This document shows, in pieces, positions 13,585 through 62,983 of a stretch of DNA of 64,000 nucleotides. A program made the translations under genes and the position numbers. The notes below the pieces were generated by a model. The model ran no database searches. It was not told the DNA's origin and saw nothing but the letters and a program-made list of their open reading frames with translations. The stretch is from Myxococcales bacterium (GTDB lineage Bacteria; Myxococcota; UBA727; GCA-2721815), in NCBI GenBank assembly GCA_002721815.1, contig PBLQ01000043.1:2571-66570 (forward strand), in the 5' to 3' direction. Each line of letters opens with the position of its first letter. The stretch's first letter is position 1.

Positions 13585-13596
13585 GCGTTGAACACC

Positions 13597-14721: not shown

Positions 14722-14826
14722 GTTTACCCCATACTCCTTTTGACCTCCCGGTGTAAAATAAAACGGGAATGTTTTTCTTTTGAATTACGGCGTGACTGGA
14801 CAAGATCTCAGGTATAGGCTAGAGCC

Positions 14827-29232: not shown

Positions 29233-32200
29233 GTGGTGAATAAAGAAACCAACGGATTTGGTGTGAACGCCAGCTATGTGGCTATTTTGCGGGCCCAATG
29301 GGTTTTGGATCCTGCATCCGTCCCTGTGGAGTGGGCGCAATATTTCGCGGCGTCACCCGATGACGAGACACCGGTGACGGCCGTACCCGAAACAAAATTC
29401 GTTGCGAAAAAAGAGGCCCAAAAGCCAGCGCCTCAAACACCAGTCAAAAATGACTCTGAAGAAGAAGTGCCACTCTTAGGCATCAGTAAAAAGATTGCTG
29501 AAAACATGGAGGCGTCATTAGGGCTCCCCACGGCCATGTCCACCCGGGAAATCCCGGTGAAAGTGTTGGAGGAAAACCGACGCATCATCAACAGTTATCT
29601 GACGGATACAGCAAATGCCCGCTGCTCATTCACCCACCTCATCGCGTTTGCCATGGTGAAGGCGGCCACTGAAGTTCCGGCCATGAATCTTGGTTACCGA
29701 AACGGGGCGAAAGGCCCCGTCAAATTGGTGCGAGAAAACATGAATTTAGGATTGGCCATTGATTTACCAGGCCGTGGCGGATCCCGAACTTTGGTGGTAC
29801 CCAACATTAAATCCTGCCAAGACATGGATTTTTGGGCTTTCTTTTCGGCCTACAATGACCTGATCAAAAAAGCGCGAAGCGGTAAGCTCAGCCCAGCCGA
29901 CTTTGCTGGTACCACTATCACACTGACCAATCCAGGTGGCTTGGGCACTGTGTCATCGAACCCTCGGTTGATGTTGGAGCAAGGGACCATCGTGGCCACG
30001 GGGAGAATCGGTTACCCCGCTGAATATGAAGCCACGGCGCCGGAAACATTGCGCGCCCTAGGCATTGGCAAGGTGATGTCCATGACCTCCACCTATGATC
30101 ACCGGGTGATTCAAGGGGCTGAATCGGGGGCATATCTCAAATACATTCATGAACTGCTCAATGGGGAACACGGTTTTTACGACGAGGTTTTTCGCGCCTT
30201 AAAAATCCCTCACTTTCCCTATCGGTTGGTTCAAGATCGCTCGGTGGCTTTCGCACAGGGTGGCACGTTAACCGAAACCGAGCGCGCGATGCGTGTGTCT
30301 CAGTTGATTCATGCTTTTCGCGTCCGCGGTTACTTGTTGGCCAACACCGACCCGCTCGATTTACAACCTCGAGAGCACCCAGAGTTAAATCTAGACGCTT
30401 ATGGACTTACCCTTTGGGATTTAGATCGAGAGTTCTTAACCTTGGGGGTCTTGCCTGAACGCACTGCACCTTTCCGGCAAATTTTGGGCCGTCTGCGTGA
30501 TACCTATTGCCGACGTATGGGTGTGGAATACATGCACATCCACGAACCAGAAGAACGTCGGTGGTGGCAGCAAAACTTGGAGCGCGAACCGCTCACTTTT
30601 AGTGTGGATGAAAAAAGACGTATTTTGTCCAAAGTCACCGAGGCAGAAACCTTTGAACGATTTTTACACAAACGGTTCATGGGTCACAAACGGTTTAGTA
30701 TCGAAGGCGGGGAATGTCTCATTCCAATTTTGTCCGCTTCGCTCACTTCTGCGGCAACCTACGGCGTGAACGACCTTCATATCGGTATGGCGCATCGCGG
30801 TCGACTCAATGTTTTGGCCAATGTGGTGGGTAAGCCTGTGGAGGCCATTTTTGCGGAGTTTGAAGACATTGAGACAAAAAGCCAGCATGGCTCTGGGGAT
30901 GTGAAGTACCATTTGGGCGCCAAAGGTGAATACCTTTGGAGTGGCATCACCAATGACACGGATGCCTACGATGAGCGTTCCGTCCGTGTTGAATTGGCTT
31001 GTAACCCTTCACATCTCGAAGCCGTAAGCCCGGTGGTGTTGGGGTCCACCCGTGCGCGACAAGATTTGGTGGGCGATAAAGTTCGCAACCGTGTGGTGCC
31101 AGTCTTAATCCACGGTGACGCTGCATTTGCTGGCCAGGGCGTGGTGTATGAAACCTTGCAAATGAGTGGTCTCAAAGGATACAGCGTGGGCGGCACGGTG
31201 CACGTGATCGTGAACAACCAAATCGGCTACACCACCTCTCCGGACAAAGCGCGAACATCGGTGAGTGCTTCAGACGTGGCGCGTGCCATCTTTTGCCCTG
31301 TTTTACGGGTCAATGGCGACGACCCCGAAGACTGCGTGAGAGCTGCCTTATTGGCATTTCGTTACCGGATGGAATTCAACAAAGATGTGATCATCGATAT
31401 GGTTTGTTATCGAAAATACGGTCATAATGAAGGCGACGAGCCTGGCTTCACGCAGCCCGTTTTGTACCGGGCCATCAACGAGCACCCGTCCGTGCGAACC
31501 TTGTACGCCGATTTGCTCGTTCGCCGTAAAGATTTTACACGCGAAGAAGTGGATGAGATTCAAGAAACCTACTACGCGAGCCTCGATGCGTCTTTGGCCG
31601 CCATTCGTGAAAAGGGTGACGACGCCATCCCTGAAGAAGCAGGTGTGCTTCCCGGTGCCATCGATCGCGATGCGGAAGAAGAGCCTGTGACTGCGGTCGA
31701 TGAGGCCCTGCTCAAGCAAATCACCGAAAAGGTGACCTACGATCCCAAAGTGGTGGATATCCACCCACGTGTGATCAAAACCGTTTTGGAACGTCGGCGA
31801 AAGATGGTCCTTGAAGAGGGCAAAGGTATTGATTTCGGCATGGCTGAAACATTGGCTTACGGGTCTTTGTTACTTGAAGGCATCCCTGTCCGTTTGAGTG
31901 GGCAGGACGTGGGTCGTGGCACATTCGCCCACCGTCACGCCATTTTATATGACAACAAAGACGGTCGCCCTTACATCCCATTGCAATACCTGTACCGCTC
32001 TAAAGACGATGAGGCCGAAAGCATGTCCGCCTCACATTTTCGGGTGTATGACTCTTTGTTGAGCGAAGAAGGAGTGCTGGGTTTTGAGTACGGCTATTCC
32101 GTAACGCATCCAGATGCGCTGGTTATTTGGGAAGCCCAATTCGGAGATTTCTATAATGGTGCGCAGATCCAGGTGGACCAATTTATTGCGTCGGGCGAAG

Positions 32201-32886
32201 TGAAATGGGGCCAACGGTCTCGAGTGGCTCTGCTGTTGCCCCACGGTTATGATGGACAAGGGCCCGAGCACTCCTCGGCGCGTATTGAACGGTTTTTGCA
32301 GCTGTGCGCAGAGGACAACATGCGCGTGGCGAACTGCTCTACGCCTGTGCAGCTCTTTCACTTGCTGCGTTTGCAAGCCAAACAGCCTAAAAAACCATTG
32401 GTCATCTTTTCTCACAAAAGTTTGTTGCGCGCTGACTTCGCGGCTTCTGCCCTCGAAGATTTTACTCAGGGTGGTTTTCAAACCATTATCGAAGATGATG
32501 ATGCGCCCCAAACAACCCAGAAAACAATTTTATGTTCCGGAAAAATTTATTGGGACTTACAAAAAGAGCGGAAAGCATCTCACCCAGATGCACCTATTCG
32601 CATTTTGCGCTTAGAACAACTTTATCCTTTTCCAGCGGCTGAGCTTACGAAAATGCTCGGCACGAAGACCAAAGATGTAACTTGGGTACAAGAAGAACCT
32701 GCCAACGGTGGGGCTTATTTGTTCGTGAAACAAATGTTGGAAGAATTAAATATCAAAACCCATTACGTTGGGCGCGCGGCGGCCGCCAGTCCCGCCACGG
32801 GTTCCATGAAAAAACACAAGGCCCAGCAAGAAACGATTATCAAGGCAGCTCTCACAGAGATGTCAACGAAAGAGTACCATGTTTAA
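29233..32886 (+). CDS. sucA: OdhA/Kgd-type multifunctional 2-oxoglutarate dehydrogenase (E2-like acyltransferase core fused to E1o)
   Basis: 1217 aa. N-terminal third has an E2 catalytic core with TSTYDHRVIQGAESG. The rest is SucA-like (RFSIEGGE, HRGRLNVL, NQIGYTT, WEAQFGDF). No lipoyl domain is visible. GTG start. Confidence 0.9.
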   Translation: MVNKETNGFGVNASYVAILRAQWVLDPASVPVEWAQYFAASPDDETPVTAVPETKFVAKKEAQKPAPQTPVKNDSEEEVPLLGISKKIAENMEASLGLPTAMSTREIPVKVLEENRRIINSYLTDTANARCSFTHLIAFAMVKAATEVPAMNLGYRNGAKGPVKLVRENMNLGLAIDLPGRGGSRTLVVPNIKSCQDMDFWAFFSAYNDLIKKARSGKLSPADFAGTTITLTNPGGLGTVSSNPRLMLEQGTIVATGRIGYPAEYEATAPETLRALGIGKVMSMTSTYDHRVIQGAESGAYLKYIHELLNGEHGFYDEVFRALKIPHFPYRLVQDRSVAFAQGGTLTETERAMRVSQLIHAFRVRGYLLANTDPLDLQPREHPELNLDAYGLTLWDLDREFLTLGVLPERTAPFRQILGRLRDTYCRRMGVEYMHIHEPEERRWWQQNLEREPLTFSVDEKRRILSKVTEAETFERFLHKRFMGHKRFSIEGGECLIPILSASLTSAATYGVNDLHIGMAHRGRLNVLANVVGKPVEAIFAEFEDIETKSQHGSGDVKYHLGAKGEYLWSGITNDTDAYDERSVRVELACNPSHLEAVSPVVLGSTRARQDLVGDKVRNRVVPVLIHGDAAFAGQGVVYETLQMSGLKGYSVGGTVHVIVNNQIGYTTSPDKARTSVSASDVARAIFCPVLRVNGDDPEDCVRAALLAFRYRMEFNKDVIIDMVCYRKYGHNEGDEPGFTQPVLYRAINEHPSVRTLYADLLVRRKDFTREEVDEIQETYYASLDASLAAIREKGDDAIPEEAGVLPGAIDRDAEEEPVTAVDEALLKQITEKVTYDPKVVDIHPRVIKTVLERRRKMVLEEGKGIDFGMAETLAYGSLLLEGIPVRLSGQDVGRGTFAHRHAILYDNKDGRPYIPLQYLYRSKDDEAESMSASHFRVYDSLLSEEGVLGFEYGYSVTHPDALVIWEAQFGDFYNGAQIQVDQFIASGEVKWGQRSRVALLLPHGYDGQGPEHSSARIERFLQLCAEDNMRVANCSTPVQLFHLLRLQAKQPKKPLVIFSHKSLLRADFAASALEDFTQGGFQTIIEDDDAPQTTQKTILCSGKIYWDLQKERKASHPDAPIRILRLEQLYPFPAAELTKMLGTKTKDVTWVQEEPANGGAYLFVKQMLEELNIKTHYVGRAAAASPATGSMKKHKAQQETIIKAALTEMSTKEYHV

Positions 32887-35031: not shown

Positions 35032-35045
35032 TCATTTTCGTTCAA

Positions 35046-38000
35046 TTGAGAATGAATAACGCCAGCGAGTCTGGCGTTTTTTGTTGGCTTGGGTTAATGT
35101 TTGGAAGCTACGAACAATATGTGGGGGTGAGTGGTTTGCACTTTAAATGGTTGTTTTTGTTTTTGTTTTTGTTTTTTCTTTTCGCTGCCGGCTGTCCTAA
35201 TCCACCGCCAGCAGCTGACCCTTTGCCTCCCGATGGCCCACCCTCTCAAAACGCCACCGATGCAGGTGAAGTCATCGCTCCGGCACCACCGCTAGATGCC
35301 GGCATGGACCCTTCCGATCCGCCACCTATCGCTGATGCTGGTTCCGATCCTTCCGAACCAATCCTTGTCACTGATGCAGGCACAGAAATACCGGTGCCCG
35401 CAATAGATGCTGGAGTCGATGATGTTGTATCGGTGCCCGACGCGGGGGTAGATGTTCCTGTTGCTGATTTTGATGCAGGGATGATTTTGGTCGCAGATTC
35501 GGGGCCTGTTGCATCCCAAGATGCCGGGCTTGTTTGCGCGACTTGCCCAGAGGGAACGGTTGCGGGCACCGAAGGCTGCACTTGTGTGGATGTAGATGAG
35601 TGCGCCACGGCTAACGGCGGCTGCCATGCCAACGCCCTTTGCAGCAATGGGGCGGTGTCGGGCGCAGTTCCGGGATGCACCTGCAACGATGGTTTTTTTG
35701 GCGATGGTGCTGCTTGCAGCCCTTGGACCGTCTGCGGCGACAATGAATACGAACAAGAGGCGCCCACCGCAACCACAGACCGTGTTTGTGCTTCCATCAG
35801 CGTTTGTGATTTGGGTCATGGTGTGACTTCACCGGCCACCGGACAAAGCGACACGGTTTGCGAACCTTGCGAAACGGGCATCTCCTTTAGTGATGTGGTC
35901 GATGCCACCAGTGCATGTGAGCTGATCTCCCTTTGCGAAGCTGGGCAAGGTGTGGCCACTGCAGCATCGTCGCAAAGCGACACCCTTTGTGAGGCTTGTG
36001 TGTTGGGCACGAACTACAGCGACGTTGTCGATGGCACAAGCATTTGCCAAGCCGTGTCCGCCTGTCCTTTGGGTGAAGGCGTTACGGCCGCCGCCACCAC
36101 TATCAGCGATACCCAGTGCGCGTCTTGCGTGGCCGGTACCACCTTTAGCGATGTTGAAGACACCAGTGGGGAATGCAGACCGGTGGGCACTTGTGATTTG
36201 GGCCAAGGTGTGACTCAAGCGCCTACCACTGAAAGCGATACCCTCTGTGAGCCTTGTGCTCAGGGGAGCACCTTTAGCGCGGTGAATGACAGTATGAGTG
36301 GGTGTGAAGGGGTGACGGTTTGCGGTTTGGGTGAAGGCGCCACCTCTGCACCCACCGTGTCCAGCAATACGGTTTGCGAGCCTTGCGAAGCGGGCATCTC
36401 CTTTAGTGATGTGGTCGACGCCACCGGTGCATGTGAGCTGATCTCCCTTTGCGATGTTGGGCAAGGTGTGGCCACTGCAGCATCGTTGCAAAGCGACACC
36501 CTTTGTGAGGCCTGCGTGTTGGGCACGAACTACAGTGATGTTGTGGACGGCACAAGCATTTGCCAAGCCGTGTCCACTTGTGGACTGGGTGAAGGTGTTA
36601 CTGAAGTGGCCACAGTGCAAAGCGATACCGCGTGTGAACCTTGTGTAGAAGGCACCACCTATAGCGATGTGATCGATGACACCAGCGCGTGTGAGGCCGT
36701 TGCGTTTTGTGGGCCGGGAGAGGGTTTTGTGGCTGCGGCGACTTCAGAAAAAGACGTGATTTGTGAAGCCTGTGAGATGGGCGTCACCTTCAACAATGTT
36801 TCTGACGTACAAACACCCTGCCTCCAAGTGGCCACCTGCGCGGCGGGTTTTGGTTTAAGTCAATCGCCCACCTTTACCACAGATACGGTTTGTGAGCCCT
36901 GCGTGGCGGGCGAAACTTTTAATAGTGTTGATGATTCGACCACCACCTGCACCGTCATTGCCACCTGCGAAGAGGGTCAGGGGGTGACTCAAGTGGCCAC
37001 CGCGAGCACCAATACGATTTGCAGCGATTGCGAAGAAGGCGTTTCATTTAACAACACCAACGATGCCACGAGTACTTGCCAAGCTGCCAGCACTTGCCCG
37101 GTAGGTCAGGGCGTGGCGGTGGCGTCCACCGATACCGAAGATACGATTTGTGAAGCTTGCATCGCCGGGCAAAATTACAGTGACAGTGATGATCTCACCG
37201 CTTGTTTGACGGTGTCCTCTTGCGAAGCCGGTTTCGGGGTTGCCACAGAGGCCACGGCCGCCGCCGATACCCAATGCGAAGCCTGTGTGATGGGAGAGAC
37301 CTTCAGCAATGTGAACGATGCAACCTCTGTTTGTGAAGCCATCGCCCTTTGTCCTGTGGGTGAGGGGGTTTCGGTCTTTGCCACTGCAAGCGGTGATACC
37401 TATTGCGAAGCTTGTGAAGAAGGCATCACATTTAGTGATGTCGCCGATACGCAAGGTGAGTGTACACCCATTTCATCCTGCGATTTAGGCCAAGGCTTTG
37501 TGGCCGATGCCACGGTGACCAGCGACACTGTCTGCGAGGCCTGTGTGTGGGGTCAAACCTTTAGTGATGTGGATGATTTGCAGAGTGCCTGCGAAAGCAT
37601 CAACACCTGTCCCACCGGGCAAGGCGTTGTGGCGGAGGCCACGTTGAGTGCCGATACGTCCTGTGAAGATTGCCAATCAGGGGAGACTTATAGCGATGTG
37701 GATGACGCAGTATCACCTTGTGCTGCCATCACCACTTGCGATTTGGGTTTTGGGGTTTATGCCGGAAGCACGTCTTCTTTGGATACCATCTGTGTTGAGT
37801 GTGTGGCGGGCACCAATTATAGCGATGTGAACAATGCTGTGAACTATTGTGAAGACGTTGTACCCTGTCCTTTAGGTGAAGGCGTGGCCGAGGGCCCCTC
37901 AACACAGAGTGATGCGGTTTGCACCCCTTGCGTGGACGGCGAAACCTATAATGATGTGCTCGACGCAACCACCGCTTGTTTGGCGGTGATGGTTTGTGGT

Positions 38001-40367
38001 GAAGATGAGTTTGAAACCGTCGCCCCCAGTGTTGCGCTGGATCGCCAATGCGAAACGGTGTCTCCCTGTGGCCTCAATCAGGTGGAAACAGCGCCGCCTA
38101 CCGACACCACCGATCGCCAATGCGCTTGTATGGATTACTACGAATACGATGAATCGGATAATTGCATTCCGTCCGATTCCGATTCTGATGGCGTGCCCGA
38201 TATCTCTGACGCTTGCCGCGAAGGCGAGACCGGTTGGCTTTCAGACAGCAGTACCGATTATGACGGCGATGGTTGCCAAGATGCCACCGAAGACACGGAT
38301 GACGACAATGACAGCTTGAACGATGACTTGGATTGTGCGCCTTTAGATGCCAGCAAAAACATCCACCAAGATTACGATACCGATTGTGACGGGGCCGGGG
38401 AAGGGCTTGCCCACACCTTCAAAAGCGTTACCGTCGGACACCACCTGGTTTGCGGCATTCGAATCGACGATACGCCCGAGTGTTGGGCCGACAATGGTGC
38501 CTACGCTCCAACCTCCGCGGCACAAGCAGAGTTTGTTGTTGCGGGGTACGGCGAGTCAAACTTTGGTGAATATCACGATGTGTGCGCTCTGGAGAAAGAT
38601 ACTGGCGATCTGCGTTGCAGCGGCACCTCTTCTCTGGGTAGCAATATGCCTTCAGGGTTTTGCTGTGATAACCCTTGGCTTCAAGTGGACGTTTTCGGCA
38701 TTACCAGTGGCATTTGCGGAGTGACCCAAGATAATCGACTCACGTGTTGGCAAGGGAGTAATTCTTATTACGACCAAATTCCTACCGATGCTGACAACGG
38801 TGACGCGCCCTATACTGATTGGATCCAAGTGACGGCGGGCGATGGCCATTATTGCGGTTTGCACAGCGATGGTGTTTTAGATTGTTGGGGATGGAATTAC
38901 TTTGGGCAGTCCGATATTCCCACCGATACCGATGGGAGCGCTTACACCGATTGGGTTGCGGTGAGTGCGGCCGAAACTCACACGTGCGGCATTCGCAATA
39001 CCAACGAAGCGGTTTGTTGGGGAGGAAGTGATGGGTTTGCCGCAGGGGTTGTGCCCACCCAACTCGATGGCGACCCTTATGCTTTCACGAAGATTTCAGC
39101 TGATGTAGATCACACCTGTGGGATGCTCGAGGACAATTCAATCCTGTGTTGGGGCGACAACACCCACGGCCAAATTGACGTGCCTTTAAACAACGGGGTT
39201 GCAGTGACGGATTGGATCGATTTTGACACCGGTCCTTATCGCACGTGTGGTTTGCATGCCAATGGCATCATCGAATGTTGGGGGCGATATACCACCGATG
39301 CCTATGCCGTGCCTCAGACCACCGCGCCGTACACCGACTGGAGAAGCGTAGATACCAGTTATGGTTTTTGCGGCATTCACGCTGACAATCAATTGGACTG
39401 TTGGGGTTTTAATTCGGCATCAATTACGCCAACGGCAGTGAACAGTGCTGAATCTTACGGTCCGGCTTGGCAAGAAGTCGCTTCGAGCCGTTATTTGATT
39501 GCTGGAATCGATACCTCTGGAGACATCAAGAGCTTTGGAAATGGTGCTTTTTATGGAGTTAACGTACCTGTGGATGGTCTCGGAGAGACGTTAACAGAGT
39601 GGCAATCCTTGGCGGTAGGGGGCTATCAAAACGGGCATGTTAATGTGTGCGGAATTCAAGGTGATGGGTATCTTTATTGTTGGGGCGGTGACAGCGATTA
39701 CTTCCCTGAGCAAAATGAGATCCCCACCGATGCAGGGGAGCCTTATAGCGATTGGGTGCAAGTGGGGGTGGGTTACCGCAACGCTTGTGGCTTGCGGGCG
39801 TCAGGAGAGATTTATTGCTGGGGCGATAATACCTACAACCAACTGGAGGTGCCCGACCACGATGATTGGGTAAGCCTTTCGGTTGCAAATACCTATAACA
39901 AAAGTGATTACAACAGCCCGCATTTCAGTTGCGGTTTGCGTGAAACGGGCGAGGCGTTCTGTTGGGGCAGCACGCAAAGTGACGTTTCTACCGTGCCTTC
40001 CATTGCATCGGACCTCTCATGGACCAAAATCCAAGCTGGGCATAAAAGAGGTTTTGGAGAGTTAAGCGATGGTTCTTTGATCGTATGGGGTCACAACACC
40101 AGTAGTACGATGGAAGCAGCCATTGCACTGCCGGCAGGGCAACGCTATAAAGCATGGGATGCGCGATCTGTCTTTTGTGGGATATTGCCCTCGGGTTTGA
40201 TGCAATGTTTCAACTGGTCAGGCGAGGATATTTCTGATGAGGTCCCCAGACGCTCATACGCTGTGGATAATTGCATGGGCCTCGCCAATGCCGACCAAAC
40301 CGACTCGGATGACGATGGTTACGGCGATGCCTGTGACAGTGCACCGAACGATTCCGGTGTGCATTAA
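35046..40367 (+). CDS. Giant mosaic lipoprotein: DAG-rich linker, EGF-Ca module, 17 TNFR-type Cys-rich repeats, TSP3 repeats, ~14 RCC1-like blades, C-terminal TSP3
   Basis: 1773 aa. Lipobox LFAAGC at aa 45-50. CVDVDECATANGGCHANALC (EGF-Ca). Tandem 43-aa Cys repeats. DSDSDGVPDISDAC / DYDGDGCQD (TSP3). Repeated hCG...G.l.CWG.N..GQ blades. The start is uncertain (TTG 35046, ATG 35052, or ATG at M18). Confidence 0.88.
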   Translation: MRMNNASESGVFCWLGLMFGSYEQYVGVSGLHFKWLFLFLFLFFLFAAGCPNPPPAADPLPPDGPPSQNATDAGEVIAPAPPLDAGMDPSDPPPIADAGSDPSEPILVTDAGTEIPVPAIDAGVDDVVSVPDAGVDVPVADFDAGMILVADSGPVASQDAGLVCATCPEGTVAGTEGCTCVDVDECATANGGCHANALCSNGAVSGAVPGCTCNDGFFGDGAACSPWTVCGDNEYEQEAPTATTDRVCASISVCDLGHGVTSPATGQSDTVCEPCETGISFSDVVDATSACELISLCEAGQGVATAASSQSDTLCEACVLGTNYSDVVDGTSICQAVSACPLGEGVTAAATTISDTQCASCVAGTTFSDVEDTSGECRPVGTCDLGQGVTQAPTTESDTLCEPCAQGSTFSAVNDSMSGCEGVTVCGLGEGATSAPTVSSNTVCEPCEAGISFSDVVDATGACELISLCDVGQGVATAASLQSDTLCEACVLGTNYSDVVDGTSICQAVSTCGLGEGVTEVATVQSDTACEPCVEGTTYSDVIDDTSACEAVAFCGPGEGFVAAATSEKDVICEACEMGVTFNNVSDVQTPCLQVATCAAGFGLSQSPTFTTDTVCEPCVAGETFNSVDDSTTTCTVIATCEEGQGVTQVATASTNTICSDCEEGVSFNNTNDATSTCQAASTCPVGQGVAVASTDTEDTICEACIAGQNYSDSDDLTACLTVSSCEAGFGVATEATAAADTQCEACVMGETFSNVNDATSVCEAIALCPVGEGVSVFATASGDTYCEACEEGITFSDVADTQGECTPISSCDLGQGFVADATVTSDTVCEACVWGQTFSDVDDLQSACESINTCPTGQGVVAEATLSADTSCEDCQSGETYSDVDDAVSPCAAITTCDLGFGVYAGSTSSLDTICVECVAGTNYSDVNNAVNYCEDVVPCPLGEGVAEGPSTQSDAVCTPCVDGETYNDVLDATTACLAVMVCGEDEFETVAPSVALDRQCETVSPCGLNQVETAPPTDTTDRQCACMDYYEYDESDNCIPSDSDSDGVPDISDACREGETGWLSDSSTDYDGDGCQDATEDTDDDNDSLNDDLDCAPLDASKNIHQDYDTDCDGAGEGLAHTFKSVTVGHHLVCGIRIDDTPECWADNGAYAPTSAAQAEFVVAGYGESNFGEYHDVCALEKDTGDLRCSGTSSLGSNMPSGFCCDNPWLQVDVFGITSGICGVTQDNRLTCWQGSNSYYDQIPTDADNGDAPYTDWIQVTAGDGHYCGLHSDGVLDCWGWNYFGQSDIPTDTDGSAYTDWVAVSAAETHTCGIRNTNEAVCWGGSDGFAAGVVPTQLDGDPYAFTKISADVDHTCGMLEDNSILCWGDNTHGQIDVPLNNGVAVTDWIDFDTGPYRTCGLHANGIIECWGRYTTDAYAVPQTTAPYTDWRSVDTSYGFCGIHADNQLDCWGFNSASITPTAVNSAESYGPAWQEVASSRYLIAGIDTSGDIKSFGNGAFYGVNVPVDGLGETLTEWQSLAVGGYQNGHVNVCGIQGDGYLYCWGGDSDYFPEQNEIPTDAGEPYSDWVQVGVGYRNACGLRASGEIYCWGDNTYNQLEVPDHDDWVSLSVANTYNKSDYNSPHFSCGLRETGEAFCWGSTQSDVSTVPSIASDLSWTKIQAGHKRGFGELSDGSLIVWGHNTSSTMEAAIALPAGQRYKAWDARSVFCGILPSGLMQCFNWSGEDISDEVPRRSYAVDNCMGLANADQTDSDDDGYGDACDSAPNDSGVH
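35854..36059 (+). repeat. Copy A of a near-identical ~206-bp intragenic duplication
   Basis: Aligns base for base with 36370-36575 (offset 516 nt = 4 repeat units), with roughly a dozen mismatches by eye. Confidence 0.85.
36370..36575 (+). repeat. Copy B of a near-identical ~206-bp intragenic duplication
   Basis: See copy A. It encodes CEPCEAGISFSDVVDATGACELISLCDVGQGVATAASLQSDTLCEACVLGTNYSDVVDGTSICQAVS, against the almost identical peptide in copy A. Confidence 0.85.
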
Positions 40368-40370
40368 AAG

Positions 40371-41564
40371 CTATGAATCATAACCGGCGTGACGTACCGC
40401 TATATTTTTTTCGTCATGGTCATCACGCTGGTTTTCCAAAAAAGCCCAGACCGCATCGGTACTGTCGCCCCCTTCAAGCATTTTGCGGGGCGTGTCGTGT
40501 CCAAAGAGCAAATCCATAGCCAACCTATCGGAGACAAATTCGTATTCGTCGCGCCGCCAATCAAAACCCTTAAATGCCATGGCTGCACGAATGACCGAGA
40601 TGCCAGTTTTCAGTGGTAAGAAAGTCTTTTCATCGGTGACGTGTAATTGAATACCGCCACACATTGCGTTGGCATGTTTTTGAAACATGGGCTTAAAGAA
40701 AGTGGGTCGGGCCGTCACGCCGGGCAGGTTATCGCCATTAATGCTGGCAGCCATTTGAGCGACATCATCAATATAAGGTGCGCCGATGAGTTCAAAGGGG
40801 CGGGTTGTACCGCGGCCTTCTGAAAGATTGGTACCTTCGTACAAACAGCCGCCGGGATAGACCAAAGCGGTGTCGATGGTGGGCATGTTGGGCGAGGGCA
40901 AGACCCAAGGCAAACCGGTCTCGGCGAAGGTCATGTGTCGCCTGTAGCCTTCACACCACACAATCTCCATGGAGGCTTTGGGCATGCCAGCAGCGGCGTC
41001 TTCGTTTTGAAAGAAGTGGCACAGCTCGCCCAACGTAAGACCGTGGCGATTGCACAAAGGGTATTCGCCCACGAAAGAGTCCCATCCTTTTTGAACCACA
41101 TTGCCTTCGAGTACGCCACCCACAATGGGGTTGGGTCTATCGAGAATCATGCAATGCACCCCCGCTTGGGCGCAGGCTCTTAAAGCAAAAGCGGTGGTAT
41201 AACAAAAGGTGTAATAGCGGCTGCCAATGTCTTGTAAATCACACAAGAGGACATCCACACCTTCGAGGTCTTGGGGCTTTAAAAAGAGGGAGTCTTTGGT
41301 GGTGCCGTACAGGCTGATAACGGGAATCTTGAGTTTCGGGTCGACGACTTCTTCATCTACGGATTCCATATCTTGGGCAGCGCCTAAAATACCGTGTTCC
41401 GGCCCGAAAAGACGGACCAGATTGATATCGGCCTGGATACAGCGATCCACCATGTGAATGAGCTGGCTGTCCACCGAGGCAGGGTGGGCGAGAAGGGCGA
41501 CGCGCTTGCCTTTGAGCGCGGTCATCTGATTATCTACGAGTATGTCTAATCCGAGTTTCACCAT
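40371..41564 (-). CDS. namZ: DUF1343 family protein (exo-beta-N-acetylmuramidase NamZ-like)
   Basis: MVKLGLDILVDN...LKGKRVALLAHPASVD...RLFGPEHG is the typical DUF1343 N-terminus. 397 aa. Confidence 0.8.
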   Translation of the reverse strand: MVKLGLDILVDNQMTALKGKRVALLAHPASVDSQLIHMVDRCIQADINLVRLFGPEHGILGAAQDMESVDEEVVDPKLKIPVISLYGTTKDSLFLKPQDLEGVDVLLCDLQDIGSRYYTFCYTTAFALRACAQAGVHCMILDRPNPIVGGVLEGNVVQKGWDSFVGEYPLCNRHGLTLGELCHFFQNEDAAAGMPKASMEIVWCEGYRRHMTFAETGLPWVLPSPNMPTIDTALVYPGGCLYEGTNLSEGRGTTRPFELIGAPYIDDVAQMAASINGDNLPGVTARPTFFKPMFQKHANAMCGGIQLHVTDEKTFLPLKTGISVIRAAMAFKGFDWRRDEYEFVSDRLAMDLLFGHDTPRKMLEGGDSTDAVWAFLENQRDDHDEKNIAVRHAGYDS

Positions 41565-41677: not shown

Positions 41678-43960
41678 TTAAATGGCGTGAGGCTCTAAAC
41701 TGCATACGATCCACTTAGACGTCGGTGTGTTTGACTTTTCGGCCGTAGAGTTGAGCGGGACCAGCACGTTCGCTTCTGGAAAATAAGTGGCGATATTTCC
41801 TCTGGGAATCGTGTAAGCGACCAATTGCCATTTTTCTGCGCGTCTTTCTTCGTTTTTATAGTAGCTCACAATATCGACGTATTCCTGGGCCTGCCAACCG
41901 CGCGCTTTGATATCGTCTGGGTTCATGAGTACGATACGTCGATTGCCATGCAAGCCGCGATAGCGGTCGTGAAGATCATAAATCGTTGTGTTGTACTGAT
42001 CGTGCGACCGGATGGTGATCATGACGTACCTGTCTTCTGGAATTTTCAGATCGGGTAACGGATGCGTAATAAAATGCGCTTTGCCATCTGCAGTGGCGAA
42101 AGAGCGGGAGTCTCGGGGTGGGTTAGGCAGACAAAATCCATTGGGGGCACGGACACGTTCGTTATAATTGTCGAACCCATGAAGCGCGCGGCTCATGAGT
42201 TCACGGATGTGATCATAGTTAGACGCCAGGTGGGGCCAATCACGTCCGTCATTAAGTACGACATGTGCGAGTTGCGATACAATCCAAGGTTCACTTTTTA
42301 AATGTTCAGATGCGGGTTTAAGGCTCCCTTGGGACGTATGGACAACGCCCATGGAGTTCTCCACTGTCACGAATTGCGGCCCTGATTCCTGCAGGTCTGT
42401 TTCGGTGCGGCCCAAGCAGGGAAGAATCAATGCTGTTTGTCCAGTGACCAAGTGACTGCGGTTTAGTTTCGTAGACACCTGCACTGTGAGTTTGACTTTT
42501 CGAAGACCCTCCGCGGTGGCCTCTGTATCGGGTGTCGCAGAAATGAAGTTTCCGCCCATACAAAAGAACAGGTCCACCTCACCCCGCTGCATTTTTTTAA
42601 TGGCTTCGACCACATCTACGCCATGTTCTCTTGGCGATGTAATCCCCGTTGCTTCGTCTAACTTTTTAAGAAATTTTTCGGTAGGCCTCTCCCAAATTCC
42701 AACGGTACGGTCCCCTTGTACATTCGAATGCCCACGAACCGGACATAGGCCCGCTCCTTTTTTACCAATATGCCCACCCATCAGTAACAGGTTGGTCACC
42801 TCTTGTATGACCGCCACACCGTTTCTGTGCTGGGTTAACCCCATGGCCCAACATGCAATCGTTCCCTTTGATGCGACGCACATTTGCCCTGCGGCATCGA
42901 TTTGTGCTCTAGAGAGTCCAGTGTCTTCTTCGATTTGTGCCCATGGCGTTTGTGCGATGTTGGCTTTCACTTTTTCAAAGTCTGTTGTTTGCTGCTGGAT
43001 AAAATCCATATCGAGTGCACCGTTTTCGATGACGATTTTCATGAGGCCATGCATTAGGGCAGCGTCACTGCCAACTTTCACCTGTAGGAAGAGATCTGAT
43101 AAGGTGTCGCTCCCAAAGGAAAGTTTCATGTAGTCTTGGGGGTGTTTGAAGCCGATCAGACCTGTTTCAGGGAGCGGATTGATGTGGATAATTTTAGCGC
43201 CGTTTCGTTTTGCATCTCGTAGTGCTGTGAGCATCCGTGGATGGTTGGTGCCCGGGTTTTGACCGATGACCAATATAAGATCCGCAGCGTCGAAATCTTC
43301 TAAAGTCACCGTTCCTTTTCCTATGCCTATCGCTTCACCGAGACCTCGCCCGCTGGATTCATGACACATGTTGGAGCAGTCGGGCATGTTGTTGGTTCCC
43401 AGGGTTCGTGCGAAGAGCTGGTAGAGAAATGCTGCCTCGTTGGAGGTACGGCCGGATGTGTAAAAGACAGACCGGTCTGGATCATCGGCTTCCTTGATCA
43501 CTTGATCGATGAGTTGAAAAGCATCGTCCCAACTTAATGGTTCGTAATTATTTTTTCCTGGTTTTAAAACCATAGGCTCGGTGATTCTGCCGCGTGCATT
43601 GATCCAATAATCGCTGTTATCAGCCAACGCCTGCACCGTATTTGCTGCCAGGAACTGAGGGGTGACCCTTTGATTGGTGGCTTCATCCGCTACGGCTTTT
43701 GCACCATTTTCACAAAACTCGAACATGGAAGCGTGGGCAGGATCAGGCCAGGCACAACCCGGACAATCGAATCCTTTTTTTTGATTAACAGTTGCGAGCG
43801 TTTTCAGGGTTTTCCCAACGCCCATCCGAGTAATTCCATGGATGAGTGAGTTGTTGGCCGCAGGGATGCCGGCAGCAACCGTTTTGTGTTTTGACAGTTT
43901 GAGAGGCGTTAGGTCTATGGGTGTGCTCGCCCTTGCATTCTCCCTTTTCGCCATCCTCAC
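41678..43960 (-). CDS. ydeP: FdhF/YdeP-family molybdopterin oxidoreductase
   Basis: 760 aa. GFDCPGCAWPDP Cys motif near the N-terminus and molybdopterin-oxidoreductase-like core (GQNPGTNHPRM). Confidence 0.88.
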   Translation of the reverse strand: MRMAKRENARASTPIDLTPLKLSKHKTVAAGIPAANNSLIHGITRMGVGKTLKTLATVNQKKGFDCPGCAWPDPAHASMFEFCENGAKAVADEATNQRVTPQFLAANTVQALADNSDYWINARGRITEPMVLKPGKNNYEPLSWDDAFQLIDQVIKEADDPDRSVFYTSGRTSNEAAFLYQLFARTLGTNNMPDCSNMCHESSGRGLGEAIGIGKGTVTLEDFDAADLILVIGQNPGTNHPRMLTALRDAKRNGAKIIHINPLPETGLIGFKHPQDYMKLSFGSDTLSDLFLQVKVGSDAALMHGLMKIVIENGALDMDFIQQQTTDFEKVKANIAQTPWAQIEEDTGLSRAQIDAAGQMCVASKGTIACWAMGLTQHRNGVAVIQEVTNLLLMGGHIGKKGAGLCPVRGHSNVQGDRTVGIWERPTEKFLKKLDEATGITSPREHGVDVVEAIKKMQRGEVDLFFCMGGNFISATPDTEATAEGLRKVKLTVQVSTKLNRSHLVTGQTALILPCLGRTETDLQESGPQFVTVENSMGVVHTSQGSLKPASEHLKSEPWIVSQLAHVVLNDGRDWPHLASNYDHIRELMSRALHGFDNYNERVRAPNGFCLPNPPRDSRSFATADGKAHFITHPLPDLKIPEDRYVMITIRSHDQYNTTIYDLHDRYRGLHGNRRIVLMNPDDIKARGWQAQEYVDIVSYYKNEERRAEKWQLVAYTIPRGNIATYFPEANVLVPLNSTAEKSNTPTSKWIVCSLEPHAI

Positions 43961-47458: not shown

Positions 47459-48241
47459 TTGCGGTTTTTCTCTGCCATAGGTCACGCGCTCATTGAATTT
47501 TTCGCCTACACCGGCGCGATCATGCGCATGTCTTTGCGCTTTTTTAAGGTTTTGTTCAAAACCCGATTGTCTTGGCCTGAGTTTATTTCCCAATGTGAAA
47601 TTATCGGTTTGCGCTCAGTTCCCATTGCAACTTTGATTTTATTTTTTGTGGGTTTGGTCTTTGCGTTTCAGTTCGGCCTGTCCATGAAAACCATGGGCGC
47701 CATTCCTTATTTAGGGAAAATCACCTCGCTGTCCATCGCAAGAGAGTTAGGGCCAGTGTTCACTGCTTTGGTGGTGGGGGGCCGCGTGGGTGCGGGCATG
47801 GCGGCGGAATTGGGCTCCATGAAAGTGACTGAGCAAATCGATGCGATTCGCTCCCTCGGGGCTGACCCAGACAACAAATTGCTGGTGCCACGTGTACTGG
47901 CCGCAACCCTGATGTTGCCCATCATCACTCTCATTGCAGACATCGCTGGATTTTTTGGCGGCATGCTCATTGGCTGGTCGGAGTTTGGACTCTCACCTTT
48001 GGCCTATTACGCATCATCCATTTCCACCGTGTACTTGTCGGACTTTTTATCAGGCTTTTTCAAACCCTTTTTCTTTGGGTTTTTCATTGCCATCATCGGT
48101 TGCTACCAGGGCTTTCAAACCCGTGGTGGCACGGCGGGGGTGGGTGACTCCACCACCCGGACCGTTGTGATCGTGTCCATGATGGTGGTGTTCGTCGACT
48201 TTTTTCTCACCCGAATTTTTGCGTTGATGCCTTCTTTTTAA
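47459..48241 (+). CDS. mlaE: MlaE-family ABC transporter permease
   Basis: ARELGPVFTALVVGGRVGAGMAAELGSMKVTEQIDAIRSLGADP signature. TTG start. 260 aa. Confidence 0.9.
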   Translation: MRFFSAIGHALIEFFAYTGAIMRMSLRFFKVLFKTRLSWPEFISQCEIIGLRSVPIATLILFFVGLVFAFQFGLSMKTMGAIPYLGKITSLSIARELGPVFTALVVGGRVGAGMAAELGSMKVTEQIDAIRSLGADPDNKLLVPRVLAATLMLPIITLIADIAGFFGGMLIGWSEFGLSPLAYYASSISTVYLSDFLSGFFKPFFFGFFIAIIGCYQGFQTRGGTAGVGDSTTRTVVIVSMMVVFVDFFLTRIFALMPSF

Positions 48242-50910
48242 GGCGTCACCAAGTCTTCAGCGTTACGTGGTACGATTTTGTAATTTCCGTAGGCGTAATG
48301 CAAAATGCCGGTAATAGATGAGAAGGTGGTACCCACGGGGTAGGTGTTGTCCATCTCTTCCCAGATGAAATCATCAATGCGTAAGCCGCCGGTGATTGCA
48401 AATTCATCATAGTCACTGTCACCGTCCGCATTTTCTTCGGTGACGGTGACATTTTCAACGCGGACGAACATGCCTTCGTATTTTTCGCCATCCACATCGC
48501 CATCCACCACGTTAGCAGGGTCGACCACCAATGGTTCAATGAGTGCCCCGCTGGCGTTGGTGACAGTGAGGGTCGCATCGGTGATTTCGGCCAAACCATA
48601 GTATTCAACGTAGGTGCCTTGGACTTCTACATCGTTGCCCAAGGCCACGGTGCCGGGCTCGAATTGATCGTAAATGTAAATACCGGAATAAGCGCCCCCT
48701 TGCCGGGTTTGACACCAAAAGCTGTCGTTGCCACTGTTGGAGCTGGTCTTGATGGCGGTGACCGCACAGTTAATGGCCACCGAAGTGCCTTCCTGTGGAT
48801 GGTTCACGCTGCAAGTCTCTTGAATGTCGTAAATGGAGTAAGGGCCGGCGTAAGTGCTCGGTGGTACCTCGGGGCATTCATCACACTCATCGCCAATGCC
48901 ATCGTTATCAGCGTCGATTTGATCCACATTGGGGGTCTCCAAACAATTGTCGGTGTTATCGCCCACGCCATCGCCATCGGTGTCTTGGGTTTCGGCGCCG
49001 TTGTTGGGGAGTGCGTCACAGGCATCACCGGTGCCATCATCGTCCGCATCGGCTTGATCAGGGTTGCTTAGGCCCGGGCAGTTGTCCACATCATCGGACA
49101 CGCCATCACGGTCGAGATCGTTGGGGTCGAAGGTTTCGCAGTCGTTGGTGTTGGCGTCAAGCGGGCAGACGTCACACGCATCGCCAGTTCCGTCTGCATC
49201 GAGGTCGGATTGTTTGCCGCTGTCTAAAGGACGGGTTGGGTTAAAAATGTTGGGACAGTTATCATCGCCATCGGCAATGCCATCACCGTCCGCATCGCCA
49301 CTTCCAGGACCTTGGGTGTAAGCGGTGGAGCCTTCTACGATTTCCGCATCGCCACGGTAGGGGATACAAGTAGGCTCGTTGTCGGGTGCACCACAAAAGA
49401 AGAGTGGATAAATGCCTGGCACTTCAGCTTCGATTTCAGCCAAATCCATGCCGGTTTCAGTTTGGGTACAAATCAATTTGTCGATGCCACACACATTCAA
49501 AGCGTCGCATTCATTGTTGAGTGCGCCCGCTAAATTTTCATCTCCACTGAGAACATCGCCACCACGAAGGACCAGTGCCACGTCTTCAGGGTTGCCTTTG
49601 ACCACCGCTTCGTAGGGGCCCAAGCCATTGCGCATAAAAATGGCAATGTCCGCTACTTTTCCAGTACCCAAAATACCAATGTGAGCATCCATGTTCATGG
49701 CTTTGGCCCCGTTGATGGTGGCCATGGCCCAGAGGTCTTGGTAGCTAAAGAAACCGCCGAAATAGTTGGCATTGAGGAACTCTGCGCACGCCAGTTCGCG
49801 ATTGGTGTTCATGGAACCCGAAAGAACCCAGTCTGTTCCGATGGCGATAGGCACGCCCAAACGGTGGTAAAGGGTGACGGGGGCTGTATCGCCATACAAC
49901 GAGATGTTGGAGCGGGGAGACCAGATCAGTTTCATGCCATCGGCGGCCATGAGTTGGACGTCTGATGCATCCACGCCCACGCCGTGAATGATGGCTTTGT
50001 TCGCGTTAAGGGCGTACACGCCTCCGTTGGCTTCGGTTGACAAACACAAAAATTCGTTGCGTGCTTCGATGTCAATGCCCTCGGAGACATGAGGGGTAAA
50101 GGCTGATTCGGCGGATAATTCACTGGCATTGGGAAGCGAGTAGTCGCAGCCGTCCGATCGCAATGTACCGCTGGAATCTCCCAATGGAAAAGTTTCGTAT
50201 TCCACGGCGTCTGCGTTGAGCCCCTCTAAAGCGTTGCTGCGATCCAGGTTTCGCAAGAAGCCATCCACGCTTCCTGAGCCGTTGATGCTGGTGGTCCCGC
50301 CCAGGGCAAAACGCATTTCACCCCAACGTTGGCTTTTGGCACCTTGGTGCTCACCTTTGCTTTGCGAGATTTTAGGGTGACCGCGTTTGCCTTTGCGCCA
50401 GTCGTGTCGGTGCTCGTATCGCAGCAAAGGATCTTCGCCCGCCTCTGTGGCCACGTAGGGATCGCCGCCCATCCAACCCATGTGATCGTGGGTGTTGATG
50501 AGGCCGGGGGAAATGGAAGCCCCATTACAGGTGATTCGTGGGGCGTCATCGTACTCGGTCAAACACGCGCAACCCACGCATTGGATGATACCGCCGTTGT
50601 CCACATAGACGCCGCCGTTTTCCCAAACTTTGTTAGGCCCTAACACTGAGCCCACCAACAAAAGGCCGTCACCACTGCCAGAAGTGTGGAAGCAGGTGCC
50701 TTCATCGGGGGGCAGAATGGAGCCGAGATTGCAGGTCTCTACTTCGAACGTTCCGGTGTTGTTCATGTTGGAATTGTTGTTGTTGTTGCCCGGACCAGCG
50801 TCAGGTGTATCTGGGGCCACGGGATCTGGCTCTCCATCGGGACCCATGGGGCAGGCGGTGAGGCAAGTGAGTGCGATGGGCAATACGAGGCTTAAATATC
50901 TAATTTTCAT
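48238..50910 (-). CDS. Secreted lipoprotein: amidohydrolase domain + TSP3 calcium-binding repeats + C-terminal OB-like beta domain
   Basis: Start taken at ATG 50910 (MKIRYLSLVLPIALTCLTAC, lipobox). SPGLINTHDHMGW (HxH metal site) and IAIGTDW. About 8 DxDxDGxxDxxDxC units (nt ~48865-49310). The tail YSIYDIQE...VEVQGTYVEYYGLAEI... resembles the OB-like module of ExeM/NucH-type extracellular nucleases (recognition only). Confidence 0.82.
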   Translation of the reverse strand: MKIRYLSLVLPIALTCLTACPMGPDGEPDPVAPDTPDAGPGNNNNNSNMNNTGTFEVETCNLGSILPPDEGTCFHTSGSGDGLLLVGSVLGPNKVWENGGVYVDNGGIIQCVGCACLTEYDDAPRITCNGASISPGLINTHDHMGWMGGDPYVATEAGEDPLLRYEHRHDWRKGKRGHPKISQSKGEHQGAKSQRWGEMRFALGGTTSINGSGSVDGFLRNLDRSNALEGLNADAVEYETFPLGDSSGTLRSDGCDYSLPNASELSAESAFTPHVSEGIDIEARNEFLCLSTEANGGVYALNANKAIIHGVGVDASDVQLMAADGMKLIWSPRSNISLYGDTAPVTLYHRLGVPIAIGTDWVLSGSMNTNRELACAEFLNANYFGGFFSYQDLWAMATINGAKAMNMDAHIGILGTGKVADIAIFMRNGLGPYEAVVKGNPEDVALVLRGGDVLSGDENLAGALNNECDALNVCGIDKLICTQTETGMDLAEIEAEVPGIYPLFFCGAPDNEPTCIPYRGDAEIVEGSTAYTQGPGSGDADGDGIADGDDNCPNIFNPTRPLDSGKQSDLDADGTGDACDVCPLDANTNDCETFDPNDLDRDGVSDDVDNCPGLSNPDQADADDDGTGDACDALPNNGAETQDTDGDGVGDNTDNCLETPNVDQIDADNDGIGDECDECPEVPPSTYAGPYSIYDIQETCSVNHPQEGTSVAINCAVTAIKTSSNSGNDSFWCQTRQGGAYSGIYIYDQFEPGTVALGNDVEVQGTYVEYYGLAEITDATLTVTNASGALIEPLVVDPANVVDGDVDGEKYEGMFVRVENVTVTEENADGDSDYDEFAITGGLRIDDFIWEEMDNTYPVGTTFSSITGILHYAYGNYKIVPRNAEDLVTP

Positions 50911-50921
50911 TGGTTTTAATC

Positions 50922-50989
50922 CATGGTGACGAAAGAAAGGCAAACTTCTCCCTATTGGGATTCTCTCCCATATATATGGCGTCACCATG
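50922..50989 (-). promoter_or_regulatory. 10-bp perfect inverted repeat in the OMP-amidohydrolase intergenic leader
   Basis: CATGGTGACG (50922-50931) and CGTCACCATG (50980-50989) enclose 48 nt. The enclosed stretch contains the palindrome CCATATATATGG (50968-50979). Confidence 0.35.
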
Positions 50990-61060: not shown

Positions 61061-61061
61061 A

Positions 61062-62015: not shown

Positions 62016-62021
62016 AGAATG

Positions 62022-62049
62022 ATTGTAGCGCAAATCAGCGCCTGCACAA
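62022..62049 (-). promoter_or_regulatory. Candidate sigma70-type promoter for trhO (possibly leaderless)
   Basis: The minus strand reads TTGTGC-16 nt-TACAAT. The -10 ends 6 nt before the ATG at 62015. Confidence 0.35.
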
Positions 62050-62106
62050 GGGGGCGTCTTTTTTCTAAGCTGTTGAAATATAGCAGTTTTTTGATACGGC
62101 GATCGT

Positions 62107-62973: not shown

Positions 62974-62983
62974 GCGATCCCCT

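Follow-up and report, generated by a model that had tools for sequence, protein, structure and literature searches.

Cysteine-rich domains (CRDs) of the tumour necrosis factor receptor (TNFR) type are usually viewed as an animal, at most a holozoan, invention. Choanoflagellates hold the largest known CRD repertoires, and bacterial occurrences of the domain have been mentioned only in passing (PMC4979521). The plant receptor kinase CRINKLY4 (CR4) carries a CRD that is only weakly TNFR-like, and the disulfides in the blades of its propeller have been described as unique to it (10.1101/2020.08.10.245050). Here we describe a bacterial gene in which TNFR-type modules and such propeller blades appear together. 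It lies at 35052-40367 (+) of a 64,000-nucleotide stretch of contig PBLQ01000043.1, the whole of which we call the window. We find the gene to be an intact, accessory, species-specific insertion, and we read its predicted product as a lipid-anchored stalk-and-head binding protein, with a probability of about 60%. An earlier note, made from the sequence alone, had drawn attention to an open reading frame (ORF) of 1773 aa at 35046..40367 (+) as a mosaic of eukaryote-like modules; the frame is present on inspection, its architecture was upheld by profile, sequence and fold searches, and the module coordinates given there were accurate. The features are as follows, with residues numbered throughout on the 1771-aa product from ATG 35052.

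35052..40367 (+), gene as called in public assemblies, from ATG 35052, 1771 aa
35058..35084 (+), intrinsic-terminator-like hairpin AACGCCAG-cgagt-CTGGCGTT with T-run, within the 5' end of the mechanically called ORF
35127..35195 (+), predicted lipoprotein signal peptide ending ..HFKWLFLFLFLFFLFAAG before the putatively lipidated Cys48 (35193-35195), from sequence inspection, Tandem Repeats Finder (TRF) and homology to the paralogue P0009
35196..35531 (+), acidic Pro/Ala/Asp tether, aa 49-160, with eight DAG motifs and one DSG motif
35535..35717 (+), small Cys knot and six-Cys EGF-like module (CVDVDECATANGGCHANALCSN...CTCNDGFFGDGAAC), aa 162-222, from the EGF_3 profile
35715..35789 (+), N-terminal A1-only TNFR module (C-x5-C-GDNEYEQEAPTATTDRV-C), aa 222-246, from Cys spacing
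35787..37976 (+), array of 17 TNFR-type units, aa 246-975, with a 129-nt (43-aa) period and four Cys each
37977..38129 (+), two C-terminal A1-only TNFR modules (CGEDEFETVAPSVALDRQC, CGLNQVETAPPTDTTDRQCAC), aa 976-1026, from Cys spacing
38130..38387 (+), very acidic hinge with degenerate TSP3-like DxDxDG motifs (DNCIPSDSDSDGVPDISDAC; DYDGDGC..; DYDTDCDG), aa 1027-1112
38406..39323 (+), RCC1_2 or 'crinkly' propeller 1, blades 1-7, aa 1119-1424, boundaries approximate (RCC1_2 89.8 bits, six stretches)
39324..40271 (+), RCC1_2 or 'crinkly' propeller 2, blades 8-14, aa 1425-1740, boundaries approximate (RCC1_2 64.8 bits, four stretches)
40272..40346 (+), C-terminal TSP type-3-like repeat DNCMGLANADQTDSDDDGYGDACD, aa 1741-1765; a 6-aa tail and the stop codon (40365-40367) come after it
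35036..40376 (no strand), insertion relative to related species, synteny with contigs L059 and L060 breaking at 35035 and 40377

The array between tether and head is the most securely assigned part of the protein. At the domain level its TNFR label is solid, because sequence matches in the PDB and the predicted fold agree. Pfam TNFR_c6 (PF00020) matches the whole protein in 15 stretches at 190.3 bits (E 5.6e-57; cutoff 29.4 bits), which confirms the TNFR-like character first noticed by eye. When aa 157-1029 were searched against PDB sequences, all but one (NELL1) of the 30 matches were TNFRSF ectodomains or the TNFR-type receptor ELR1. CD40 (1.5e-11) and p75NTR (1.8e-11) came first, with RANK, TNFR2, OPG, DR6, DcR3 and HVEM also present, and the matches to CD40, p75NTR, RANK and TNFR2 (1e-11 to 1e-8) stay in register over ~3.5 CRDs. 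An AlphaFold2 (AF2) model of aa 160-560, built on a 26-row alignment of hit fragments and the protein's own later units, has a mean predicted local distance difference test score (pLDDT) of 82.5 and exceeds 90 all along the array. Foldseek against the PDB returned TNFRSF ectodomains at all of the top 42 ranks (22-32% identity), with the Chlamydomonas mastigoneme rod protein at rank 43.

Seventeen four-Cys units and three A1-only modules give 20 TNFR-type modules in all, over aa 222-1026. The units keep an invariant spacing of C-x5-C-x17-C-x2-C-x15 over 43 aa (42 in one unit) and follow the consensus C.....C..G.Gv...aT..sDT.Ce.Cv.G.tfsdV.D.ts, with conservation at G10, G12, T18, D22-T23, G31, [FY]34, V37 and D39. 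Each holds four Cys (two disulfides), not the six (three) of a canonical ~40-aa CRD, and we take it to be an A1+B1-type variant in the TNFR nomenclature. The units average 46% aa identity (range 28-93%), and the 129-nt period is visible in the DNA at 60-86% identity; it is too diverged for TRF, whose sole call in the gene was the (TTGTTT)n of the signal-peptide region. The first eight units bear the mark of a block duplication displaced by 516 nt (four units): units 2 and 6 are 93% identical, units 1 and 5 67% and units 3 and 7 63%, with ratios of nonsynonymous to synonymous substitution (dN/dS) of 0.14, 0.40 and 0.24, respectively, all from small substitution counts. From the duplication and the low dN/dS it follows that the array expanded inside the gene and was kept under purifying selection.

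Resemblance of this kind could point to a mimic or decoy aimed at eukaryotes, in which the array binds TNF/C1q-type trimers or other cues and arrived by horizontal gene transfer from a unicellular, choanoflagellate-like eukaryote. The homology to animal TNFRSF ectodomains is real, in register as described above; EukProt proteins with SH2 or Tyr-kinase domains show the identical [6,18,3,15] Cys spacing; the EukProt relatives P0003, P0006 and P0008 match at E 7.5e-87 to 1e-34; and the choanoflagellate repertoires offer a conceivable source. However, an exhaustive phmmer search of the array against 1.84 billion representatives found no relative of any origin at 50% identity or more (best 38%), and the codon usage of the gene is fully ameliorated. 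The units have four Cys, not six, their monotonous regularity fits a spacer, and the array grew within a bacterial gene; the same stalk carries several unrelated heads in bacteria, and the organism is known from open-ocean plankton metagenomes with no host indicated. The protein shows no hydrophobic segment after the signal peptide on inspection and no Death-domain match in Pfam, and none of the ~29 window ORFs scanned has a TNF or C1q domain. We consider a decoy quite improbable. In the same phmmer search, 1483 proteins matched at E<=1e-3, 443 at <=1e-10 and 80 at <=1e-30, and arrays of 14-25 units occur elsewhere, so that arrays of this unit type appear to be rare, not unique. At least 10 of the best 150 relatives carry a lipobox in its strict form.

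The head is made of 14 blades (aa ~1119-1740). RCC1_2 (PF13540) matches the whole protein at E 1e-32, and both halves of the head pass its 22-bit cutoff; WD40_RLD, at 64.7 bits in the whole-protein Pfam scan, stays under its cutoff of 150, and a whole-protein NCBIfam scan gave no family match. The count of about 14 RCC1-like blades thus stood, while the Cys pair once ascribed to every blade is found in 12/14, including all seven of propeller 1, and is missing from blades 9 and 13. The two Cys of a pair are spaced 10-11 residues from each other (C-x9/10-C), in almost all cases within h-CG-x8-CWG, and would form one disulfide in each Cys-paired blade. Among solved structures, the best sequence relative of the head is the ectodomain of Arabidopsis ACR4 (CRINKLY4; 7a0j, 2.3e-11), with whose Cys residues those of the head align; yeast RCC1 and UVR8 reach only ~3e-3. 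In an AF2 model of aa 1030-1771 we count 14 three-strand sets, with pLDDT above 90 in the central blades and below 50 in the TSP3-like parts. Foldseek matches to the head model include UVR8 (8e-15), BLIP-II (2.3e-14), Physcomitrella CR4 (2.8e-13) and RCC1, in the range 1e-13 to 1e-15, and CR4 has the highest identity (19-24%) of the top matches. A division of the blades into two propellers of seven each would suit this model.

BLIP-II (3qhy_B, TMt 0.52) ranks among the best fold matches and is itself a secreted bacterial RCC1-like propeller that binds protein tightly. The head might, by analogy, neutralise a secreted enzyme or toxin of competitors, the stalk being secondary. But the head has no sequence-level match to BLIP-II, whose blades lack disulfides (10.1101/2020.08.10.245050), and a 5-kb membrane-tethered stalk would be superfluous for an inhibitor; we regard an inhibitor or scavenger as a long shot.

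Two short acidic regions frame the head. The TSP3-like motifs that had been proposed lie at aa ~1040-1100 and 1741-1765, and the second copy alone matches COMP (3fby, E 2.4e-4, PDB sequence search). TSP_3 (PF02412) scores 13.4 bits in the hinge and 18.6 bits at the C-terminus, both under the cutoff of 25, and the TSP3 label is one of motif level. In the AF2 model the hinge is disordered or of low confidence.

The N-terminal leader would place this assembly on a membrane. The lipobox first read as LFAAGC was found as FLFAAGC, with the Cys at 35193-35195; the pattern ..HFK-WLFLFLFLFFLF-AAG-C fits, on inspection, an n-region, a hydrophobic h-region and a lipobox, and signal peptide and lipobox align with the signal peptide of the paralogue P0009, LLGSALGGC. 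A perfect hexanucleotide repeat, (TTGTTT)4.3 at 35151-35176 (found by TRF), encodes the LFLFLFLF core of the h-region, and slippage in it would alter the length of this region in frame. The tether that follows has 112 aa, none of them basic, and its net charge is about -23. It is rich in the DAG motif, as reported, at eight copies plus one DSG rather than about ten; a similar tether occurs in P0009, and DAG motifs also occur in P0183, P0216 and P0313.

Behind the tether, the EGF-like module proper occupies aa 178-222 (nt 35583-35717). EGF_3 supports it at 30.8-35.3 bits when scanned as a fragment (cutoff 28.5) and at 27.2 bits in the whole protein, NELL1 EGF matches it at 7e-4 in the PDB sequence search, and the EGF modules of P0009 share 51% identity with it; AF2 confidence over it is low (pLDDT below 55). 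It had been called Ca-binding. It has the DVDEC start and the C-S-N of Ca-binding EGFs, and lacks the aromatic residue before Cys4 (..VPGC). EGF_CA (PF07645) scores 14.3-16 bits in the fragment scan, under its cutoff of 27, and Ca binding by this module is therefore a motif-level suggestion.

Where translation begins bears on the signal peptide. An intrinsic-terminator-like hairpin at 35058-35084 has an 8-bp GC-rich stem followed by TTTTTTGTT; it lies 27 nt past the stop codon of the upstream dehydrogenase E1 alpha/beta gene and belongs to the minimum free energy fold of 35032-35100 (-21.3 kcal/mol, z -2.9). The view that the gene starts 14 nt beyond E1 with no terminator between, as in an operon, is thus wrong. 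Because the hairpin sits inside the 5' end of the ORF, the true start should be downstream of ATG 35052, which is also disfavoured because it implies an unusually long signal peptide of 47 residues. GTG 35127 or TTG 35136, or else ATG 35097, is probably the start; the alignment with P0009 opens at W33, three residues past the P0009 Met, and favours 35127 or 35136. All candidate starts are in frame, and the mature protein from Cys48 is therefore the same whichever is used, at about 1,720 residues after cleavage by signal peptidase II. The whole protein has 120 Cys, and its acidic residues (277 Asp+Glu) far outnumber the basic ones (32 Lys+Arg).

An assembly chimera, or eukaryotic contamination in a bacterial contig, is the most prosaic rival to a real bacterial gene. 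A repetitive array could mis-assemble, the contigs of 5/6 assemblies end within the gene, and domains of these types are most familiar from eukaryotes. Eleven contigs carry the neighbouring E1 protein, and we compared six of these loci. In 6/6 public assemblies (ENA Tara assemblies, the NCBI metagenome-assembled genome (MAG) GCA_002298025.1, a JGI Tara assembly and a Logan assembly) the gene is collinear and gap-free at 99.91-99.98% identity, and one contig (L052) covers all 5322 nt and both flanks with one mismatch. Two of the contigs (L055, L056) probably share one underlying assembly, since both end at the same base. The ORF runs uninterrupted for 5.3 kb, and all its units but one pair differ enough (60-86% DNA identity) to be easily assembled. 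The lipobox is bacterial, and the leader is common to a paralogue in the same genome. Codon usage is host-like, with a third-position GC content of 0.53 and a mean absolute difference in relative synonymous codon usage of 0.248 against 0.18-0.35 in 18 window genes; the slightly raised GC of the gene stems from second codon positions only, that is, from amino-acid composition, and the codon-usage test gave no sign of recent import from a eukaryote. A chimera, the refuting case that the earlier note had itself named, is very hard to credit on this evidence. Three assemblies have contigs that end at 38684-38712 and two others at 37324-37402; no exact DNA repeats were found there as a cause, and strain-level variants of the head or distal part are possible. 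Exact-sequence look-ups of the 1756-aa and 1771-aa products returned no record, though the DNA occurs in six assemblies.

The flanks are bacterial genes: an OdhA-like E2-E1o fusion, E1 alpha/beta, NamZ, a molybdopterin oxidoreductase, an enoyl-CoA hydratase and SfsA. The nearest named relatives of the E1 protein come from 'Deltaproteobacteria bacterium' and Myxococcaceae MAGs at roughly 65-71% identity, and the window also codes for PEGA, PilZ-AMIN and DUF4215 ('Myxococcus cysteine-rich repeat') proteins. The host would therefore be an uncultured marine bacterium of Myxococcota or 'Deltaproteobacteria' type, a placement made through indirect markers. Rfam and tRNA scans of the window found nothing, so they offer neither an RNA marker for taxonomy nor an integration-site tRNA.

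Three contigs from related species (L058, L059, L060; 75-89% DNA identity to the window where aligned, E1 at 90% aa identity or more) show that the gene occupies a variable slot. In L059 and L060 the slot is empty, and E1 and NamZ converge with overlapping stop codons; from the exact synteny breakpoints it follows that the insert is a single gene with its hairpin. Because the slot differs between sister species, niche-specific selection is probably at work. L058 instead holds an HXXSHH/DUF1552 gene and a PSD/PSCyt gene in the slot (12393-17833), and an HXXSHH + PSD pair also adjoins P0334 on an unrelated contig (L121 5844-9487); this recurrence may be coincidence or may reflect linked cargo of variable regions. 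Next to NamZ, the molybdopterin oxidoreductase at 41678-43960 (-) is gone from its position in L058 and stands in L060 behind an 836-aa MopE-like gene, a second rearrangement within the same 10 kb.

The comparison of orthologues and repeat numbers among relatives that had been proposed found nothing to compare. GTDB representative genomes yielded distant RCC1 propellers only, with no orthologue and no self-match; JGI metagenomes held no orthologue and therefore no repeat-number variants, and none appeared in a word-indexed search of 5.8 billion clusters. A paralogue, P0009, was found on contig L061, which overlaps window positions 57841-64000 at 99.9% identity and so places it in the same genome. 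It codes for 2978 aa at L061 10001-18937, ~3.8 kb past the window end and about 27 kb downstream of the gene. The two proteins have the signal peptide, DAG tether and first Cys knot in common (34% identity, 1e-22); the P0009 leader also has EGF and TNFR-A1 modules, followed by Laminin_G_3, Lcl_C and Big_7 domains.

More distant bacterial proteins repeat the plan. P0334 (754 aa), P0324 (1110 aa) and P0328 (1089 aa) each join a lipobox and a TNFR_c6 array to a Cys-pair RCC1_2 propeller; a TNFR stalk is joined to SBBP propellers in P0216, P0238 and P0183, to Laminin_G_3 in P0203 and to TIG domains in P0181. Two of them lie among bacterial genes, P0334 by SerRS and the HXXSHH/PSD pair and P0324 by Amt and P-II. 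The picture that emerges is of a toolkit in which varied binding heads would be mounted on a common base of lipid anchor, acidic tether, EGF module and TNFR stalk. This revises the framing of the earlier note, in which every module was typical of metazoan matrix or receptor proteins. Bacteria commonly have the Cys-stapled RCC1_2 blade, which is the 'crinkly' repeat of plant CR4; canonical TSP3 occurs elsewhere in the window; the combination of lipobox, TNFR array and propeller recurs in bacteria; and the codon usage is host-like. The canonical TSP_3 (68.5 bits) belongs to a lipoprotein at 48238-50988 (-), with ..LTCLTAC, a PDAG-type linker and an amidohydrolase domain, and on a marine contig (L068) RCC1_2 propellers are flanked by canonical TSP3 repeats. 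One candidate, P0174, was rejected as a small bacterial TNFR_c6 + RCC1_2 homologue, its contig looking eukaryotic (Ank, UCH and WD40 fragments, broken short ORFs, GC 0.41). On L064 (1374-4197), of low coverage and GC 0.41, with Ank/UCH/WD40 fragments, a broken gene combines TNFR_c6, Cys-rich modules and RCC1_2 blades and probably represents this domain pairing in a protist.

Together, these features suggest how the protein may work. After cleavage by signal peptidase II it would be anchored through a lipid on Cys48 and, because of its 120 Cys (up to 59 disulfides), would fold only in an oxidising compartment. The TNFR array would serve as a stiff, disulfide-stapled spacer rod and not as a cytokine receptor. 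Four-CRD TNFR ectodomains are ~10 nm long, and by analogy the rod would measure on the order of tens of nanometres. The DAG tether and the TSP3-like hinge would act as flexible joints that in seawater probably bind Ca2+ or Mg2+, and the double-propeller head would be held off the membrane, its candidate partners being a prey, particle or host surface molecule, a glycan or, as for BLIP-II, a protein. The gene would thus belong to a modular set of bacterial lipoproteins with a common leader and stalk and swapped heads (RCC1_2, SBBP, Laminin_G_3, TIG), and its own array would have grown in situ by tandem duplication under purifying selection.

Several points weigh against this picture of a stalk-and-head binding protein. 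Its function is drawn from architecture, with expression, location and ligand all putative, and the lipobox is a prediction by eye and homology. The conserved face of the 17 units (FSDVxD, SDT) could equally mark repeated binding sites, not a passive stalk. The hairpin leaves hardly any room for a promoter, and read-through or a promoter inside E1 may be the route to expression. The AlphaFold check endorsed the array and its TNFRSF fold, and gave 14 three-strand blades for the head in a model of moderate quality (mean pLDDT 64.6, predicted template modelling score 0.54) that leaves the mutual arrangement of the propellers unfixed. Surface or outer-membrane exposure is likewise putative. The protein could instead be a lipoprotein of the inner leaflet of the outer membrane or of the inner membrane and act as a structural spacer within the periplasm or across the envelope: a periplasmic orientation is usual among bacterial lipoproteins, and no recognisable surface-export or C-terminal sorting tag is present. 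A rod of tens of nanometres with two propellers, however, would exceed the usual width of the periplasm, and the heads of its relatives (Laminin_G_3, Lcl_C, TIG, SBBP) are typical of extracellular binders, which makes a structural spacer unlikely.

The window holds further genes of possible interest. At 29233-32886 (+) lies a 1217-aa fusion of a 2-oxoacid acyltransferase (E2) catalytic domain and 2-oxoglutarate dehydrogenase E1; E2-E1 fusions of the OdhA/Kgd type are best known from Actinobacteria, and this one stands in a Myxococcota-like genome. A 1248-aa acidic ORF at 57581-61327 (-) has 41 Cys, a DUF4215 match and a probable lipobox start (..LLMVNAGC) well inside the mechanical ORF. Another acidic ORF, at 48-2135 (+), has 695 aa, 60 Cys, an uncertain start and no Pfam match, and the protein at 6162-7820 (+) joins an N-terminal PilZ to a C-terminal AMIN domain.

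None of the domain families of this protein is new, and it is no surprise in itself to meet eukaryote-like extracellular modules in a genome of Myxococcota type. Long, regular TNFR stalks in bacterial lipoproteins are apparently new or under-appreciated, as is the recurrence in bacteria of their pairing with Cys-stapled 'crinkly' propellers; this is the largest and most elaborate example we found, and our literature search met no descriptive study of bacterial TNFR-domain lipoproteins of this kind. The bacterium builds with repeated copies of bona fide TNFR modules, which are nearer in sequence to CD40 and p75NTR than the CR4 domain is. Should the stalk-and-head reading hold, such proteins may be what uncultured marine myxobacteria-like cells use to make contact with prey, particles or hosts, and TNFR-array lipoproteins could also provide well-behaved repeat scaffolds for structural work. 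A more speculative thought, which we put forward as doubtful, is that the 'crinkly' propeller and the TNFR stalk, so far known as a pair from plant CR4 receptor kinases only, form an ancient extracellular pair circulating in bacteria, a reservoir or sister lineage of the CR4 ectodomain and possibly of protist TNFR-array receptors, and that it lets these bacteria sense eukaryotic or prey cells, or adhere to them, at long reach.

Set against known systems, the likenesses are strongest in the stalk and the head. With the type-3 repeats of thrombospondin and COMP the protein shares a C-terminal DNCxxxxNxDQxDxDxDGxGDxCD that fits their consensus; it differs in having one good copy and a few degenerate ones instead of a many-repeat 'wire', with both regions sub-cutoff and Ca binding putative. 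The EukProt receptor kinases (P0003, P0006, P0008) have similarly long arrays of C-x5-C-x17-C-x2-C-x14/15, but these are membrane-spanning signalling proteins that carry SH2 or Tyr-kinase domains and lack an RCC1_2 head.

Functional members of the animal TNFRSF are type I/III transmembrane proteins whose cytoplasmic region signals through TRAF sites or a death domain and which have a cognate ligand of the TNF fold. The lipoprotein resembles the family (CD40, p75NTR, TNFR2, RANK, DR6, DcR3) in its TNFR_c6 profile match, in 25-32% identity over 150-180 residues and in fold, and shares with p75NTR the FSDV..D...C motif and the ..SDT.CE.C signature. It differs in having four-Cys units in 17 near-regular copies rather than six Cys in 1-6 copies, in the absence of a transmembrane (TM) helix, death domain and TRAF motif, and in having no TNF-like ligand gene among the window genes scanned.

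The bacterial TNFR lipoproteins (P0334, P0324, P0328, P0216, P0238, P0183, P0203 and P0181, together with P0009) are alike in lipobox, TNFR A1/B1 array and binding head, often also in a DAG-type acidic tether and an EGF module, and three of them carry a Cys-pair RCC1_2 head. Identity to our gene product does not exceed 38%; it is larger than the RCC1_2-headed ones, is the sole two-propeller case here and adds TSP3-like motifs.

Finally, the CRINKLY4/ACR4 ectodomain (PDB 7a0j, 7a0k) is built of blades with a matching motif, C-x~10-CWG, and a disulfide in each (PMC4617170; 10.1101/2020.08.10.245050), and likewise pairs a Cys-stapled RCC1-like propeller with a TNFR-like Cys-rich domain. The predicted layout matches that of CR4 in putting the propeller farther from the membrane than the Cys-rich part, with the chain running the opposite way. 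CR4 has one propeller and one ~90-aa CRD in the order propeller-CRD-TM-kinase, whereas the lipoprotein runs from a predicted lipid anchor through 20 TNFR modules to two propellers and has neither a TM helix nor a kinase. The per-blade disulfide of 'crinkly' propellers, predicted here from the Cys pairs, is thus not plant-specific, and the pairing of such propellers with TNFR modules recurs in bacteria.

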